Part shown: positions 2,787 through 48,686 of the stretch, in pieces
Layout of the letters: the number at the start of each line of letters is the position of its first letter
How positions within the stretch are numbered: position 1 is the stretch's first letter
Source of the DNA: Escherichia coli
GTDB lineage: Bacteria; Pseudomonadota; Gammaproteobacteria; Enterobacterales; Enterobacteriaceae
Reading direction: 5' to 3' (one strand)
Length of the DNA: 64,000 nucleotides
Assembly (NCBI RefSeq): GCF_051903065.1
Contig: NZ_CP178438.1
Translations under genes and position numbers: made by a program
Notes under the pieces: generated by a model
Databases searched by the model: none
What the model saw: the letters and a program-made list of their open reading frames with translations, nothing else
Told to the model about the DNA's origin: nothing

Positions 2787-5700
2787 TCATGACTGATTAA
2801 AACGAAACAGCGGTAACAGGAAACGTTGCGACTGTTCAACGATGGCCTCCATTGTCTCTGGTGTTAATTGCCGCCAGAGCCGTTGATACCAGATATCATC
2901 ACCTTCGCCACGCACCATCATGTTGCCTTCGTAAGCCTGAAGGAATTTCGTACGGGCTTTTTGCAACGTGGAATCGTCATCCAGCATGGCATCGTTTTGC
3001 GCGTCATAACAGGTTTTTAGCCACGCGCCGCCACTTTCAGGTAACACCAGCAATGGCGCGGACATCCCTTCACGATACCCCTCAATCAGTTGTGAGAGGT
3101 AATGCAAAGCCTGTTCGGCTGCAAGCGGCGGAAAACGCCACTCGCCGTCTTTGCGTAGAAAAAGGCGACTTTCACCATTACCACCGCTGGCACAGTAGAC
3201 AAGGTGTTCCAGCCAAAGTTGCATTCCCTGCGCCACACTTAATAAAGAGGGACGCCAGCGCAACAAGCCATCCGGCTGCACCTGCGGCAACCAGCCAGTT
3301 ATCTGCACACCGTTGCAAGCGAGATCAATTTCCATACTCTGCCCCGGCTGGCGACAGGCAATGACTCTGTCGGCAAGCTGCTGCATCTCCTGGCACTGTG
3401 TTTCCCAGAAAATTTCACCAAAAGCGCCATACGGTAAATCCCCTGCCGCCCGGAAGCGGCGGAACAAGCGTTCGGCATCATCCTGCTCAACCAGTGCATT
3501 CAATAACTGCTGATTGATTTGATAACGGCTAAGTCCTTCCAGAATAAATGGCTCGGTGTCGGGGATTTCGCTGTCTTCGGTACGGAAGTTCACCTGCAAA
3601 CGCATCTGGAAAAATGCCCGCACCGGATGTGCCCAGAATCGTTGTAGCGTTTCCAGCGGCACGGTTTCCGGTAAGGTAAACGGCAGCGGCTGAACAAATT
3701 CAGAATGTGCTTTACCAGCCTGGCTGGCCGCAGGTAGCCATTCACGAGCATAGCTTTGTCGTTCGCCTGGCTGATAGTTTTGTGGATCAAACGGCATTCG
3801 GGTATGGAGGCAAGTAAGATGCGCTTTTACCCTTGCCTCGCTTTCATCACAGTTGAGCGCTTCATCGCCCGGTAGATAATGACTTTGCCCGATGTAGTCG
3901 ATCAGTTCCTGCACCAGTACCGACGGGAAACGTTCACTGTTATCCTGAATGGAACGCCCGATATAGCTGATATAGAGTTTTTGCTGCGCGGAAATTAACG
4001 CTTCCAGGAACAGATAGCGGTCGTCATCGCGACGGCTACGGTCGCCACGCTTCGGTTTCTGGCTCATCAGGTCAAAGCCCAATGGCGCAAGCTGACGTGG
4101 ATAAACGCCGTCGTTCATTCCCAGCAGGCAAACCACTTTGAACGGAATTGAACGCATTGGCATCAGAGTACAAATGTTAACCGGTCCGGCGAGAAAACGC
4201 TGGCTGATACGTTCTTGATCCAGGCGCTGTGCCAGTTCATCACGCAATAGTGACAACGGCACCGCGTCGCCATACTGCGCACCTAAACCTTCGGCGATAA
4301 TCGCCTGCCATTGTTGTTCGATCAGCGTCATCGCCGCTTCGGTTTCCGCATCCGGCAGGAAGAAGGCGTTGAGCATATCGCGACAAACCGGCAACCACTC
4401 TTCCAGCGGACGCTCCTGTGCCAGCCCGCGACGCCAGATGTTTAGCTGCATTAGCAGTGAAGCCAGATGCCCCACCAGTTCTGCAATTAAGCCGCTCGAT
4501 TCATCATAAGGTAGAACCGATTGCCACTCGCCCTGCGCGCTCTCCATCGCGTAGCCCAACAACATACGCGTCAGGCCAAATCGCCAGGTGTGTTGTCCGG
4601 TGGCGGGGAGTTCCAGCTCGCGAACGTTGTCGTCATCTATCCCCCAACGAATGCCGGATTCGTTGACCCACTGACGTAAATAACGCAGCCCTTCTTCGGT
4701 GATGTCAAACCGCGCCGCCAGCACCGGCACATCCAGTAATGCCAGCACGTCTTCCGACACAAAGCGGCTGTCTGGCAACGATAACAGGCTGATAAACGCT
4801 TCAAGTACAGGATGCGACTGCCGCGCCCGACGGTCGGAAATGGCGTAAGGCAGGTAACGATCCGCAGGTGCGCTACCAAACACAGCCTGAATAAACGGAC
4901 TGTAGCTGTCGATATCAGCCACCATCACGATGATGTCGCGCGGAGTAAGTGTCGGGTCTTCTTCCAGCATCGCCAGCAGGCGATCGTGTAAAACTTCAAC
5001 TTCACGCTGCGGGCTATGGCAAACGTGGAAGGTGATACTGCTATCCAGTGGATCAAGCGGACGTTTGTTATCGCTACGGGAAAACTCTTCGATGTTCACA
5101 CCAGCAACGGCGCGGTTTTCCAGTTCCAGAATGTCAGACTGAATGTTATGCAGCAGGTTATCTGGCGTCACATCGACAAAAGCATCCAGCTCCTGGCTGC
5201 TCTCCAGGTCAGAAAGGAGATAAATGTAGTCGCGCCCAAGCTTGCCCCATGAGGCCAGCAGCGGGTTGCCGACATCCTGTTCACCATCGCTGTTAAAGAG
5301 CTGCCCGGCATTTTCGCTGTCGCGAAATAGCGGTAATTCGCGATCTTCAAAACTGTGTCGGCGCTGGCGAGTCAGTAGTTTCGCCAGATAAGCAGGATCT
5401 TTAATGTCGCCCCAGTAATAACGGCAGGGGTTGGTAAACAGGAGATGGATTTCAATATGTTTACCCAGCGCCTGGAGCGCCTGGAGATAAACAGGCGGTA
5501 ACGCGGAAATACCGCATATAAAGACGCGCGAAGGTAACCCCGGCGGGCAGGTCGCCGCGGACTCCAGCGTTTCGATAAAGCGCTGATAGAGATTGGCGCG
5601 GTGCCAGCGCGGTTGTCCGAGTTGATGGGTATATTCCACCAGCGCCTTCCACAACGGCGCTTGCCAGGCCTGTGCCTCTCCCAGCCCTTCAACCAAATGT

Positions 5701-6155
5701 CCTGTTTCCCACTGTGCCAGCCAGTCCGGACGATAGACCAGATACTGGTCAAACAGGTCCGCCGCTTTTGAGGAAAGCTGGAACAGCTTTCGCTTGTCGC
5801 TATCGTCAGTCAGATAATGCCGCAACAGGGTAAAGTCTTCGCGCTCCAGCAATTGCGGCAGCAGAGTCATCAGTTTCCAGCTCATGCTCTGTTTGTTAAA
5901 GGCGCTCTCTTTGGGGATCTCCGGTAACACCCGGACGAACATATCCCAGATAAAGCTCGCAGGCAGCGGAAAATCAATGTTTGCCGCAATACCAAACTTT
6001 TGCGACAGGGTCATTTGCAGCCACTGTGCCATACCGGTACTTTGCACCAGAATCATCTCTGGTTCGAAAGGATCGTCCAGCCGTTCGCGTTCGACAATAA
6101 ACTCCATCAACGCTTCCAGCACGTCCAGACGATTGGAATGGTAGACCCTTAACAT
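2787..6155 (-). CDS. recC: Exodeoxyribonuclease V gamma subunit RecC
   Basis: 1122-aa ORF in track; length and N-terminus MLRVYHSNRLDVLEALM match RecC. Confidence 0.95.
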   Translation of the reverse strand: MLRVYHSNRLDVLEALMEFIVERERLDDPFEPEMILVQSTGMAQWLQMTLSQKFGIAANIDFPLPASFIWDMFVRVLPEIPKESAFNKQSMSWKLMTLLPQLLEREDFTLLRHYLTDDSDKRKLFQLSSKAADLFDQYLVYRPDWLAQWETGHLVEGLGEAQAWQAPLWKALVEYTHQLGQPRWHRANLYQRFIETLESAATCPPGLPSRVFICGISALPPVYLQALQALGKHIEIHLLFTNPCRYYWGDIKDPAYLAKLLTRQRRHSFEDRELPLFRDSENAGQLFNSDGEQDVGNPLLASWGKLGRDYIYLLSDLESSQELDAFVDVTPDNLLHNIQSDILELENRAVAGVNIEEFSRSDNKRPLDPLDSSITFHVCHSPQREVEVLHDRLLAMLEEDPTLTPRDIIVMVADIDSYSPFIQAVFGSAPADRYLPYAISDRRARQSHPVLEAFISLLSLPDSRFVSEDVLALLDVPVLAARFDITEEGLRYLRQWVNESGIRWGIDDDNVRELELPATGQHTWRFGLTRMLLGYAMESAQGEWQSVLPYDESSGLIAELVGHLASLLMQLNIWRRGLAQERPLEEWLPVCRDMLNAFFLPDAETEAAMTLIEQQWQAIIAEGLGAQYGDAVPLSLLRDELAQRLDQERISQRFLAGPVNICTLMPMRSIPFKVVCLLGMNDGVYPRQLAPLGFDLMSQKPKRGDRSRRDDDRYLFLEALISAQQKLYISYIGRSIQDNSERFPSVLVQELIDYIGQSHYLPGDEALNCDESEARVKAHLTCLHTRMPFDPQNYQPGERQSYAREWLPAASQAGKAHSEFVQPLPFTLPETVPLETLQRFWAHPVRAFFQMRLQVNFRTEDSEIPDTEPFILEGLSRYQINQQLLNALVEQDDAERLFRRFRAAGDLPYGAFGEIFWETQCQEMQQLADRVIACRQPGQSMEIDLACNGVQITGWLPQVQPDGLLRWRPSLLSVAQGMQLWLEHLVYCASGGNGESRLFLRKDGEWRFPPLAAEQALHYLSQLIEGYREGMSAPLLVLPESGGAWLKTCYDAQNDAMLDDDSTLQKARTKFLQAYEGNMMVRGEGDDIWYQRLWRQLTPETMEAIVEQSQRFLLPLFRFNQS

Positions 6156-6167
6156 AGCGGCTCCTGA

Positions 6168-6491
6168 CTACTGACGATTCGGGCAATGCAGGCGGGTCAT
6201 CTCGCCTGCTCTGCCCCCGGGTGAAACTAGCGTAACGCTGATGCTGACACATCCCGCCTGCGATGTCTGCATTCGGTTGACCTGCCAGTTGGCAGGTGGC
6301 GAAATCGCGCGCAGTTGCGTTTGCTGCCAGCCATGCCGCCAGAGCTGTTGGTACTGGTTTCTGCTGGCAAGACTGTTCATTAATGTTCGCTGGAAACCCG
6401 ATAACGCAGTGACAATCATCACCATCAACACCATCGCCAACATTACCTCCGGCAGGCTAAAGCCTTGTTGATTCTTCAGGGAAGCTGACAT
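6168..6491 (-). CDS. ppdC: Prepilin peptidase-dependent protein C
   Basis: Internal start [20 protein letters not shown] within listed 136-aa ORF gives 107 aa; prepilin-type N-terminus. Confidence 0.8.
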
Positions 6492-6883
6492 AACGCCCTC
6501 TCTTTCAGCGGACAAAAATCGCTCCAGCCGCGTGGCGAAAAAACAATGTTTCCATCGATGACTTCGCCTGTTCGCCACAACGAAACGCCTTCATAACCGG
6601 CAATCAATAAGGCTTCATTATCTGCCAATAAACGCAGACAAACCCGGGCACCGGTGGCAGCGTACAGTAAGCACTGAACTGCGGGCTGCGTCTGCCAGGA
6701 GTGCATTTTTCCCCACGCCAGCGCCGACTGAACGATGGCCTGGCGGCGCAATGACTGACTTTCCATGCTCACGCGAGAGGCAAAACTGCGATCCTGTTGG
6801 CTCATTCCTTGTAATAGCAAGCTACCCAAAACCAGCAGCATCAGGACCAGAGCCAGTGACGAAACACCCTTTTCGCGGTTCAC
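6476..6883 (-). CDS. ygdB: Putative pseudopilin-cluster protein YgdB
   Basis: 135-aa ORF with hydrophobic N-terminus, in the ppd cluster. Confidence 0.8.
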
Positions 6884-7443
6884 AGGTTGAATCCTGTCAC
6901 GCTATAGCTGGCATTCACCACGGTTTGCGGTTCAGACTTACTGGCAGCACGCATATTAACCGTCAACACCGGCGAGAAGCCGCTGACATCCTGACGTACG
7001 ACCTGAAAAGTGTCGATAATGATGGCATCCGGATTAGTGACTTTATCCCAGCCCTTACCTTCACAGGATGTCGCACCGCGTAGCGTTTCCAGCACATGCT
7101 CCTTCAGACGAAATCCAATCTGGTCGGACTCTTTTACCGGTTCGCGATCCCAGATACCGTTACTGTTCGCATCCCACTGCACAATGATACAGTCACCCTG
7201 TCCGACAATTTCCAGCCCTTCGCCGGTACAGATGCCATGACAATAACCCGCCCTCTGGATATGCTTCGCGACAGTAAATACCCGCAGCCAGATTTCATCT
7301 TCCAGTGCCAGCTTACGGGTGCTCGTTAAACTTTCACGCTGTAACGCAGGCAGAAAGCGTGCAGCCCCCAACAACAATACGCTACTGATCGCCATAGCAA
7401 TCAACACTTCCAGCAGAGAAAAACCTTGCTCTTTTACAGGCAT
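6880..7443 (-). CDS. ppdB: Prepilin peptidase-dependent protein B
   Basis: Internal start [17 protein letters not shown] gives 187 aa; listed 267-aa ORF is an alternative-start extension. Confidence 0.8.
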
Positions 7444-7904
7444 CCTTCTGTTTCTCCTTGCTGACAAAGCCGGAGTCTTCCCCACGGCGAAACCACCAGC
7501 CACCACTCGCCCGTTGAGTTTTTGAAGCGAATATGCCCGGCCCATGCGGTATTGCGTAGGCCAAAGAAAGCAAGCGAAGGTGTCAGGTCGCTCATTTCGA
7601 CTTCGGGCCAGCGTGGCACAAAGACCAATGGTGAACTGCCATGACAGGTATTCGCCCCAGCAACGGAACTCACAAGGCACCATAACGTCCCCTCCCTGAT
7701 AACACTGATACTGTGGTCGCGGTTATGCCAGTTGGCATCTTCACGTAAATAGAGCAAATAGTCCCGCGCCTGGCTGGCGGTTTGCCAAAGCCGTTGCGAC
7801 TGCTGCCAGTATTGCCAGCCATAGAGTCCACTTGCGCTTAGCATGACCAGAATCAGCATCGCGACCAGCGTTTCAATCAGCGTATAACCACGTTGTGTTT
7901 TCAT
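7434..7904 (-). CDS. ppdA: Prepilin peptidase-dependent protein A
   Basis: 156-aa ORF starting [17 protein letters not shown] (prepilin-like). Confidence 0.85.
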
Positions 7905-8038
7905 GCCGGCAGTATGGAGCGAGGAGAAAAAAAGACGAGGGCCAGTTTCTATTTCTTCGGCGCATCTTCCGGACTATTTACGCCGTTGCAGGAGGTTGCA
8001 AAATTTCGGGAAGGCGTCTCGAAGAATTTAACGGAGGG

Positions 8039-8068
8039 TAAAAAAAACCGACGCACACTGGCGTCGGC
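8039..8068 (-). terminator. Rho-independent terminator downstream of thyA
   Basis: Hairpin ccgacgc-acact-gcgtcgg followed by a U-run on the minus strand. Confidence 0.6.
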
Positions 8069-8088
8069 TCTGGCAGGATGTTTCGTAA

Positions 8089-8883
8089 TTAGATAGCCAC
8101 CGGCGCTTTAATGCCCGGATGTGGATCGTATCCTTCAATCTCAAAGTCTTCGAAACGGTAGTCGAAGATGGATTCGGGTTTACGTTTGATAATCAACTTC
8201 GGCAGCGGACGCGGTTCGCGGCTTAATTGCAGATGAGTTTGATCCATATGGTTGCTGTACAGGTGCGTGTCGCCACCGGTCCAGACAAAATCACCCACTT
8301 CCAGATCGCACTGCTGCGCCATCATATGCACCAGTAACGCGTAGCTGGCAATGTTAAACGGCAGGCCGAGGAAGACGTCACAGGAGCGCTGATAAAGCTG
8401 ACAAGAGAGTTTGCCGTCTGCCACATAGAACTGGAAGAATGCATGGCACGGTGCCAGCGCCATTTTATCCAGTTCGCCTACGTTCCACGCTGAAACAATA
8501 ATGCGGCGCGAATCCGGGTCGTTTTTCAGCTGGTTCAGTACCGTAGTGATCTGGTCAATATGACGACCATCTGGCGTTGGCCAGGCGCGCCACTGTTTAC
8601 CATACACTGGCCCGAGGTCGCCGTTTTCATCGGCCCATTCGTCCCAGATGGTGACATTGTTTTCGTGTAGATAAGCAATGTTAGTGTCGCCCTGCAGAAA
8701 CCACAGCAGTTCATGGATGATGGAACGCAGGTGGCAACGTTTAGTTGTCACCAGCGGGAATCCATCCTGCAGGTTAAAACGCATCTGATGACCAAAAATG
8801 GAAAGCGTTCCGGTTCCGGTACGGTCGTTTTTCTGTGTGCCTTCGTCGAGCACTTTTTGCATCAGTTCTAAATACTGTTTCAT
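8089..8883 (-). CDS. thyA: Thymidylate synthase
   Basis: 264-aa [29 protein letters not shown]; exact ThyA length. Confidence 0.95.
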
Positions 8884-22749: not shown

Positions 22750-23685
22750 ATGGCCGCCGTTAACTTACGTCATATTGAAATTTTTCATGCGGTAATGACC
22801 GCCGGAAGCCTGACTGAGGCAGCACACCTGCTACACACCTCACAGCCAACCGTCAGCCGCGAACTGGCGCGCTTTGAGAAGGTGATCGGGCTGAAATTGT
22901 TTGAGCGCGTACGTGGACGATTACATCCTACCGTGCAAGGACTGCGTCTGTTTGAAGAAGTGCAACGATCCTGGTACGGACTGGATCGCATTGTCAGCGC
23001 CGCAGAAAGTCTGCGCGAGTTTCGCCAGGGAGAACTGTCTATTGCCTGCCTGCCGGTCTTTTCGCAATCTTTTTTACCGCAGCTCCTGCAACCCTTTCTG
23101 GCACGTTATCCCGATGTCAGCTTAAATATCGTGCCCCAGGAATCACCGCTACTTGAAGAGTGGCTTTCGGCCCAGCGTCATGATTTAGGACTCACTGAGA
23201 CACTCCATACGCCTGCGGGAACAGAACGTACCGAATTACTCTCTTTAGATGAAGTGTGTGTGTTACCTCCGGGCCATCCACTGGCGGTAAAAAAGGTATT
23301 AACGCCGGATGATTTTCAGGGTGAGAACTACATCAGCCTTTCCCGTACTGACAGCTATCGCCAGTTGCTGGATCAGCTATTTACTGAACATCAGGTTAAA
23401 CGACGCATGATCGTAGAAACCCACAGCGCCGCGTCAGTCTGCGCAATGGTACGGGCGGGGGTAGGTGTTTCGGTGGTTAACCCGCTCACCGCACTGGATT
23501 ATGCGGCAAGCGGTTTAGTGGTGCGGCGGTTCAGTATTGCGGTTCCGTTCACCGTCAGCCTGATCCGCCCCCTGCACCGCCCGTCATCAGCGCTGGTGCA
23601 GGCGTTTAGTGAGCATTTACAAGCGGGTTTACCGAAACTGGTCACTTCTCTTGACGCTATTTTGTCGTCAGCTACGACAGCATAA
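22750..23685 (+). CDS. lysR: LysR transcriptional activator of lysA
   Basis: 311-aa LTTR with N-terminal HTH, divergent from lysA. Confidence 0.95.
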
Positions 23686-47852: not shown

Positions 47853-47931
47853 TTCGAGATGCGTAAGGCATTATAAACCTTACGCTCTCCTTAGCAAGTG
47901 CCGCGCTGCTGACTGCTGATTAATTCGCCAT

Positions 47932-48686
47932 CAGCATTTTGGCTTGCTGCCCTGCGGCGGCAAGTAACGTAGCGGATCAATTGCCGTTGCACGGTAACGA
48001 ATCTGGAAATGCAGGCGAACAGATGCCGCATCCGTGCTCCCCATGGTGGCGATTTTTTACCCAGCCTTCACGCTTTGCCCATTATTTACCAGCATCGTGT
48101 CATTATGGGCGTAAGCCGTAATGTAATCTTCACTGTGTTTAATCATGATGAGATTACCGTAGCCACGCAGCTGGTTGCCCACATACACCACCTTTCCTGC
48201 ACCCGCGGCGTAAATAGGTGTACCCCGTGGAGCTGAGATATCAATCCCTTTATTGCCGCCATCTGCTGTCGAATACGGCATGATAACTTTCCCTGTCGTT
48301 GGCCATAACCAACAACGTTGCCCTACTGGCGGCCAGGAAGATTTCGGTACCGCTGATGACGGTGTAACCGATGCGGTTTTGGTCGTTGATTTGGCGGTTG
48401 ATTTACGTGTACTACTGCTACTTTTCGCCCCACCCAGTTTTAGTTTCTGACCAACTTCAATGGTGTAAGGGGGGGAAATGCCGTTCAGTCGCGCCAGCTC
48501 TTTTACGCTGGTTCCCGTGGTGCGCGAAATACGATATACCGTATCCCCCCGTTTCACGGTGTAAACGGAGCCGGAATACGTTCCTGTATCGGATGATTTG
48601 CTACCCGAACAGCCCACCAAAAGCAGTCCAACCGATAACAACATCACGATACCCAGAGATTTTTTATTCAGGCGTCCCGCACTCAA
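47932..48686 (-). pseudogene. ygeR: LysM/M23-peptidase lipoprotein YgeR interrupted by an in-frame TAA
   Basis: Probable TTG start (AGGAAAG upstream) giving MSAGRLNKKSLGIVMLLSVGLLLVGCSG. Frame stops at 48057-48059 after ...NNGQSVKAG. The next 34 in-frame codons encode [41 protein letters not shown], the conserved M23 C-terminus. Confidence 0.75.

Follow-up and report, generated by a model that had tools for sequence, protein, structure and literature searches.

Introduction

The closest described counterpart of the locus reported here is comNOPQ (HI0938-HI0941) of Haemophilus influenzae, in which, as in Escherichia coli, four prepilin-type genes stand in the same order and orientation directly before recC. 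Both clusters are induced by Sxy and are treated as orthologues (PMC1635313, PMC12616744, PMC5809987), with ppdA as the orthologue of H. influenzae comN (PMC12616744); the similarity between comNOPQ and the E. coli genes is nevertheless too low to be detected by BLAST (PMC1635313). The hosts also differ, in that H. influenzae is naturally transformable and cannot take up DNA without comNOPQ, but E. coli hardly transforms at all. Pilin genes beside recC were described in 2006 as a conserved arrangement of the Enterobacteriaceae and the Pasteurellaceae (comNOPQ-recC), and were judged orthologous to the H. influenzae genes pulG-HI0941 of the Sxy-dependent CRP-S competence regulon (PMC1635313). 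A study of 2025 reports comNOPQ ahead of recC and oriented like it throughout the Pasteurellaceae, with a gene order as in E. coli (PMC12616744). The pairing has been read as a linkage of DNA uptake with recombination within the Sxy/CRP-S competence regulon (PMC1635313, PMC12616744). The original prediction for this DNA, which had been made from the sequence, called the neighbourhood of a pilus module and recombination machinery an odd pairing; that view does not hold, as the pairing has been described and explained since 2006 (PMC1635313, PMC12616744).

Four adjacent minor (pseudo)pilin genes that encode an assembly-priming complex are likewise found in GspH-I-J-K (PulHIJK), the minor pseudopilins of type II secretion, and in FimU-PilV-PilW-PilX, the core minor pilins of type IVa pili. 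The E. coli proteins PpdAB-YgdB-PpdC prime assembly of the PulG pseudopilus, and their interchange with PulHIJK is functional (PMC5131608); for the assembly-priming role that paper cites Cisneros 2012. The same proteins have served as the minor pilins when E. coli type IV pili were reconstituted (bioRxiv 10.1101/856302). Like YgdB, GspK has no Glu5. The E. coli proteins differ from the type II secretion (T2SS) set in being much smaller (YgdB has 135 residues, the GspK chain of the structure 280), and they show no significant sequence match beyond the N-terminal helix. The ppd cluster, joined to recC, sits apart from the remaining pilus machinery.

It is likely, with a probability of roughly 0.85, that ppdA-ppdB-ygdB-ppdC-recC is one E. 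coli transcription unit that combines the minor pilins of a type IV pilus with recC. The feature is already known as the ppdAB-ygdB-ppdC-recC operon of the competence/type IV pilus system, and is real but ordinary. It resembles any tight operon in its stop/start overlaps, in a 12-nt spacer that carries a Shine-Dalgarno sequence and in having no internal terminator. It differs from such an operon in that its last gene is of unrelated function and probably has a promoter embedded in the preceding gene. The cluster illustrates a silent yet selectively maintained DNA-uptake pilus module wired to the recombination machinery in enteric bacteria, and its importance beyond good annotation is slight.

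Organization of the locus

Positions are those of the window, the whole stretch of 64,000 nucleotides of E. coli DNA that was analysed. The genes lie on the minus strand in the order thyA, ppdA, ppdB, ygdB, ppdC, recC, ptrA. The first of the minor pilin genes, ppdA (7904..7434), encodes 156 residues from an ATG start and is followed by ppdB (7443..6880; 187 residues, ATG), also a minor pilin gene. The third gene, ygdB (6883..6476; 135 residues), begins with GTG and encodes a non-canonical minor pilin, and the fourth, ppdC (6491..6168; 107 residues, ATG), again encodes a minor pilin. The gene for the RecBCD gamma subunit, recC (6155..2787; 1122 residues), is identified by the Pfam families Exonuc_V_gamma and RecC_C and by its RefSeq annotation. 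The starts of the genes were set from the listing of open reading frames, the in-frame start candidates, the Shine-Dalgarno context and the N-terminal motifs.

Neighbouring genes overlap by 10 nt at ppdA/ppdB (7434-7443), by 4 nt at ppdB/ygdB (GTGA, 6880-6883) and by 16 nt at ygdB/ppdC (6476-6491), and the frame shift is identical at all three junctions. A spacer of 12 nt (6156..6167, TCAGGAGCCGCT) separates ppdC from recC and contains the Shine-Dalgarno sequence of the latter. Overlaps of 4-16 nt and an end of ppdC 12 nt ahead of the recC start, as originally predicted, are confirmed by these values. RefSeq gives the same coordinates as those found here, in a record with 3 nt of difference from the window over 64 kb. 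Of 5426 complete E. coli genomes, 5425 match bases 6000-8100 at an identity of at least 95%. Gene overlap by itself is common, being seen at 8 of the 39 same-strand junctions in the window. Overlaps of 4-8 nt occur in other operons within the window too.

The five genes are tightly packed into a single unit on one strand, with short or negative spacings and no convincing internal terminator. Terminator-like matches inside the unit are at chance level (7 found, 7.4 expected), and a consensus promoter scan of its minus strand gave no matches. In a study of mRNA stability ppdAB-ygdB-ppdC-recC is named as a polycistronic operon whose cistrons share their stability behaviour (PMC3936743). The proposal that the pilin genes are co-transcribed with recC is supported by this packing, by the lack of a convincing terminator and by the operon named in that study, with the qualification that recC probably has a promoter of its own as well.

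The four proteins as minor pilins

Three of the four proteins carry the canonical prepilin N-terminus (class III signal peptide), in which a short basic leader ends in Gly and a hydrophobic helix of approximately 20 residues comes next. PpdA, PpdB and PpdC score 30, 35.5 and 28.6 bits against the Pfam N_methyl family (PF07963; cut-off 21.2 bits), and all three match TIGR02532 and the NCBIfam equivalogs named 'prepilin peptidase-dependent protein'. More specifically, PpdA matches NCBIfam PRK10506, PpdB matches PRK10557 at 326 bits together with weak N-terminal matches to GspJ/PilV, and PpdC matches Pfam PF12528 (T2SSppdC) besides N_methyl. Gly-1 and Glu+5 are present in each (YTLIE in PpdA, FSLLE in PpdB and FSLPE in PpdC), and the N-termini that are most frequent among the orthologues of each protein have Glu+5 as well. 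In PpdB the residues G7, F8 and E12 are invariant, as are the cysteines C68, C72 and C85, plus C127. Cleavage and N-methylation by a prepilin peptidase (GspO/PppA) are putative, the name 'prepilin peptidase-dependent protein' being an annotation.

YgdB departs from this pattern. It has no match to Pfam N_methyl or to TIGR02532, and in Pfam it is assigned to DUF2509 only. Its N-terminus retains the basic leader, the hydrophobic stretch and a Gly6 that is invariant, with Ala in place of Glu at +5 (VSSLA). The predicted model of YgdB is a pilin fold of high confidence, with a long N-terminal helix that packs against an antiparallel beta-sheet, and it aligns best with minor (pseudo)pilins, GspK and GspI among them. 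The suggestion of prepilin-type N-termini in all four proteins is therefore upheld for PpdA, PpdB and PpdC through N_methyl, and not for YgdB, which is without Glu5 and without the motif. A phmmer search of PpdA, PpdB and YgdB against the PDB sequences returned nothing useful. The best 120 matches of a profile search with the PpdB alignment were close relatives from the Enterobacteriaceae, with no Pasteurellaceae among them.

Four adjacent genes, one of them without Glu5, correspond to a core minor-pilin set, to which published work ascribes the priming function. Where a pilus or T2SS-like module had been proposed, the evidence favours minor pilins of a type IV pilus; a T2SS is not favoured, although the proteins can prime one heterologously (PMC5131608).

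Conservation and selection

One genome per species was scanned with the RecC N-terminus, which gave 80 loci from the Enterobacteriaceae, 79 of them with upstream sequence. In all 79 usable species loci recC is immediately preceded by the four genes, whose order does not change. The junctions themselves are nearly constant: ppdA/ppdB is at -10 in 56 and -7 in 20 of the 79 species, ppdB/ygdB is at -4 in 76, ygdB/ppdC at -16 in 74 and ppdC/recC at +12 in 68. The overlaps are thus kept across the Enterobacteriaceae, a point that the original prediction had offered as a check on itself. It is this conservation of the junctions, not overlap itself, that exceeds chance.

Across genera the four pilin proteins are only approximately 50-60% identical, against 76-80% for RecC. 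The ppd genes have dN/dS ratios of 0.09-0.24, compared with 0.04-0.06 in recC and 0.02 in thyA. These values argue that the ppd genes are living genes, fast-evolving but under purifying selection, and not decaying remnants. Of the 79 species, 78 have undisrupted reading frames of conserved length, the one exception being a ygdB shortened to 79 residues (species L003).

Six recC contexts from outside the Enterobacteriaceae were compared, comprising marine and other gammaproteobacterial metagenome contigs (L085, L087, L088/L089 and L090) and two insect endosymbionts (L091 and L092), none of which is assigned to the Pasteurellaceae, Vibrionaceae or Yersiniaceae. Pilin genes are missing ahead of recC in all six, four of which have recC as the first gene of a recC-recB-recD run instead. 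Hence the pairing is confined to certain lineages and is not needed by recC. The linkage of the pilin genes to recC is an inherited gene order restricted to the Enterobacteriaceae and, from published work, the Pasteurellaceae.

Translation signals at the gene junctions

Pairing to the anti-Shine-Dalgarno sequence is strong for ppdB (-8.5 kcal/mol), ppdC (-8.3 kcal/mol) and recC (-6.6 kcal/mol) and weak for ygdB (-4.1 kcal/mol). The value of -6.6 kcal/mol for recC is found in nearly all species, and the motif AGGAG is conserved in the alignments. The stop/start overlaps fit translational coupling, for which the step from ppdB to ygdB would be the best candidate, by termination and reinitiation, because a GTGA overlap is combined there with a weak Shine-Dalgarno sequence. 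Coupling at the other pairs is plausible but not required, as ppdB, ppdC and recC have good Shine-Dalgarno sequences and could initiate independently.

The start of ppdA is of a different kind. It has no Shine-Dalgarno sequence, the pairing being -1.7 kcal/mol here with a median of -1.6 kcal/mol in 78 species. This agrees with the reconstitution of the pilus, in which the ribosome-binding site of ppdA needed improving (bioRxiv 10.1101/856302). A conserved CAyACT hexamer ends 7 nt ahead of the ppdA ATG. Given this hexamer and the missing Shine-Dalgarno sequence in 78 species, a leaderless mRNA is conceivable for ppdA, though unlikely.

The region upstream of ppdA

The 5' boundary of the ppd unit is formed by the intrinsic terminator of thyA (8040..8071, minus strand), which consists of the stem CCGACGC/GCGTCGG followed by a run of 8 T. 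This terminator was overlooked by the consensus scan and was therefore checked by folding and covariation. The hairpin has a minimum free energy of -16.6 kcal/mol. Across 60 orthologous sequences the 7 bp of its core remain paired in 95-100%, G-C and A-T pairs replacing each other by compensatory changes, and in 55 of the 60 the 8 bases that follow include no fewer than 7 T. As the terminator is conserved, the ppd unit has to be served by a separate promoter within the 184-nt spacer between thyA and ppdA.

Phylogenetic footprinting of this spacer shows two conserved blocks on the minus strand. The first is a candidate CRP-S-like site (8008..8023, TTCGAGACGCCTTCCC) of the form TTCGA-N6-TTCCC, in which the left half TTCGA is conserved and the right half is degenerate, with a mean of approximately 5.7 of 10 core positions matched. 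The left half is the TTTTTCGA half-site of the CRP-S sites of Pasteurellaceae, that of comN included (PMC5809987), and it is from this resemblance that the site is putatively assigned to the CRP-S class. The second block is the direct repeat TGCAAC-N4-TGCAAC (7985..8000), which is better conserved than any other non-coding block upstream of ppdA. The TG.AA of the repeat is invariant or nearly so in the 60 sequences, and the repeat has no other match within the window. Its first copy could act as a -35-like TTGCAA.

Each of the two blocks has a CRP-S-like left half only, and neither is a good full CRP site. Allowing up to 2 mismatches, no match to TGCGA-N6-TCGCA, the pattern of a CRP-S site with C at position 6, lies upstream of ppdA, and the 35 matches in the window are at chance level. 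Similarly, a sliding core-match score gave no site above approximately 6/10 in the 60 orthologous spacers. Induction of the E. coli ppd operon by Sxy in dependence on CRP-cAMP, with ppdA as the most induced gene, is summarized in PMC12616744, which cites Sinha 2009 and Jaskolska 2015 for it.

A candidate recC promoter inside ppdC

A codon-invariant element within ppdC (6240..6269, minus strand) is a candidate for an internal promoter of recC, of the sigma-70 class with an extended -10. It is written in full as CAGACA-N12-TGTGTCAGCATC and sits 85-115 nt upstream of the recC ATG. A -35-like CAGACA (6269..6264) is followed after 17 nt by CAGCAT (6246..6241), which is preceded by TG (TG-n-cAgcAT). 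Codons 75-76 of ppdC (CAGACA) and codons 81-84 (TGTGTCAGCATC, 6251..6240) are identical in 78-79 of the 79 species. Among invariant degenerate columns, by comparison, none of 84 in ppdA, ppdB and ygdB and 2 of 173 in recC are codon-invariant. The match to consensus is weak (4/6 for the -35 and 3/6 plus TG for the -10) and falls below the threshold of the promoter scan. Upstream of recC in the distant lineages there is no remnant of the element. A reading of the same bases as an RNA structure was rejected, as its folding energy is -6.3 kcal/mol and it has 0 compensated pairs and no support from covariation.

A CRISPRi guide designated 'recC promoter' maps to 6232..6213, just downstream of the element (PMC10443043 supplement). 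RecC is present at approximately 5 molecules per cell, and recC is stated to have its own promoter, separate from that of recB (PMC6536506); we found no direct literature on the recC promoter or its transcription start. Judged by its conservation and geometry, the element in ppdC is probably a weak promoter of recC itself that operates besides read-through from the pilin genes, so expression of recC would not depend solely on co-transcription. Independent promoters between the genes had been named in advance as the finding that would speak against a single operon. The candidate in ppdC would in part be such a promoter, and it does not abolish the operon.

Transcription and possible function of the unit

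The most probable course of events is as follows. Transcription would begin in the 184-nt spacer, downstream of the thyA terminator, at a ppdA promoter that, according to the literature, requires active Sxy (TfoX) and cAMP-CRP and is otherwise silent. A ribosome that ends one pilin gene would already sit on the start of the next, which would favour coupled and roughly stoichiometric synthesis. As core minor pilins, the four products would belong to the chromosomal type IVa pilus or competence pseudopilus, together with PpdD, HofBC, HofMNOPQ and a prepilin peptidase, and would act jointly as a complex that primes assembly of the filament. Since nothing terminator-like stands before recC, the ppd transcripts are expected to continue into it. 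RecC would have to be made constitutively at a few molecules per cell, and with the pilin genes silent recC most likely also uses the weak promoter in ppdC (CAGACA-17 nt-TGt-CAGCAT), to judge from the conservation of these bases. The linkage would thereby join genes for DNA uptake to a gene whose product processes incoming linear DNA.

The adjacency could instead be historical only, with recC transcribed solely from the promoter in ppdC and the ppd transcripts processed, attenuated or too rare to contribute. The promoter-like element and the adjoining 'recC promoter' guide would suit such an arrangement, as would constitutive RecC (PMC6536506) beside ppd genes that are reported silent without Sxy (PMC1635313) and the fact that recC works without upstream pilin genes in other lineages. 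Nevertheless a mere neighbourhood is very unlikely in view of the 12-nt spacer with nothing terminator-like in it, the +12 junction shared by 68 of 79 species, the treatment of the unit as one polycistronic mRNA with shared stability behaviour (PMC3936743) and the identical order kept in the Pasteurellaceae (PMC12616744).

What the four proteins are has also been weighed. Their identification as T2SS pseudopilins, rather than as minor pilins of a type IV pilus or competence system, is highly unlikely: the NCBIfam matches to GspH and GspJ fall far under the thresholds of those models and extend no further than the shared N-terminal helix, the literature places the proteins in the PpdD type IV pilus system and the Sxy competence regulon, and their Haemophilus orthologues are reported to be required for DNA uptake. 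Against this stand the name 'T2SSppdC' of PF12528, those weak N-terminal GspH and GspJ matches, the resemblance of the YgdB model to GspK and GspI, and the heterologous priming of PulG (PMC5131608). That the genes are decaying cryptic pseudogenes, kept only for expression signals of recC, is almost certainly wrong. They do evolve several-fold faster than their neighbours (approximately 50-60% identity against 76-80% for RecC), they are reported silent in laboratory culture (PMC1635313), and ygdB is cut to 79 residues in one species. However, 78 of 79 species have undisrupted frames, lengths, Gly-1/Glu5 and invariant cysteines are conserved, dN/dS is 0.09-0.24, the fold of YgdB is predicted with high confidence, and the proteins function in reconstituted pilus assembly (PMC5131608, bioRxiv 10.1101/856302).

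The promoter-like element in ppdC, the TGCAAC repeat and the start of ppdA without a Shine-Dalgarno sequence are minor leads. It is a speculative and unlikely idea that CAGACA-N12-TGTGTCAGCATC and the TGCAAC repeat might let an unassigned regulator, or Sxy/CRP, tie the dosage of RecC to DNA uptake, with the ppdA mRNA perhaps leaderless. If so, RecC might rise over RecB and RecD in competent cells, altering the fate of incoming linear DNA. The locus would in any event be a case of an essential downstream gene that keeps its own promoter within a conditionally expressed upstream gene. In practical terms, the embedded element is a warning that recoding or deleting ppdC could affect the expression of recC.

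Sequence elements within and upstream of the minor-pilin genes

The ppdC gene contains a block, CAGACA-N12-TGTGTCAGCATC, at 6240–6269 on the minus strand that stands out by codon invariance. The same codons are used in 78–79 of the 79 Enterobacteriaceae species, while the rest of ppdC is variable. The geometry of this block fits that of a candidate extended −10 promoter for recC.

At the other end of the unit, no Shine–Dalgarno sequence is found upstream of ppdA in the window (7905–7925, minus strand) or in the 78 other species (approximately −1.6 kcal/mol). A conserved CAyACT hexamer is present upstream of the gene, its end lying 7 nt from the ATG. A start that combines this hexamer with the lack of a Shine–Dalgarno sequence is compatible, at the sequence level, with a leaderless mRNA.

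The spacer between thyA and ppdA contains a direct repeat, TGCAAC-N4-TGCAAC (7985–8000, minus strand), with a 10-bp period. The repeat is nearly invariant and is the most highly conserved of the non-coding blocks upstream of ppdA. The element does not form a palindromic CRP site. A clear thyA terminator is located at 8040–8071, consisting of a 7-bp GC-rich stem, a 6-nt loop and 8 T residues. The consensus terminator scan missed this structure and its negatives are therefore unreliable when taken alone.

Disruption and absence of the pilin genes at other recC loci

Across the 79 species the sole disrupted ppd gene is ygdB of Escherichia sp. MOD1-EC7003, which is cut to 79 aa and leaves a 152-nt gap ahead of ppdC. 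Outside this set, the reduced genomes of two insect endosymbionts, a Sodalis-like symbiont and Serratia symbiotica, retain recC but carry none of the four pilin genes in the extremely AT-rich region upstream of it.

One ppd–recC locus of the Enterobacteriaceae type is found in a record titled Chryseobacterium sp. 18061. Its RecC N-terminus shares 80% identity with that of E. coli, and its gene junctions are those of ‘Citrobacter sp. 18056’, which comes from the same project. This assembly is probably mislabelled or contaminated.

Other features of the window

Positions 36062–45343 are occupied by what is left of the ETT2 type III secretion island. It includes a truncated ygeH beside an IS903B transposase (37396–38364) and an internal stop in sctN, whereas the annotation lists four of its genes as intact: escV, sctC, eivF and the gatekeeper gene. 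The amidase activator gene actS (47931–48686) is a pseudogene with an internal stop according to a near-identical RefSeq record. Finally, lysR (plus strand) and ygeA (minus strand) are annotated as convergent, and their 3′ ends share 14 nt (23672–23685).
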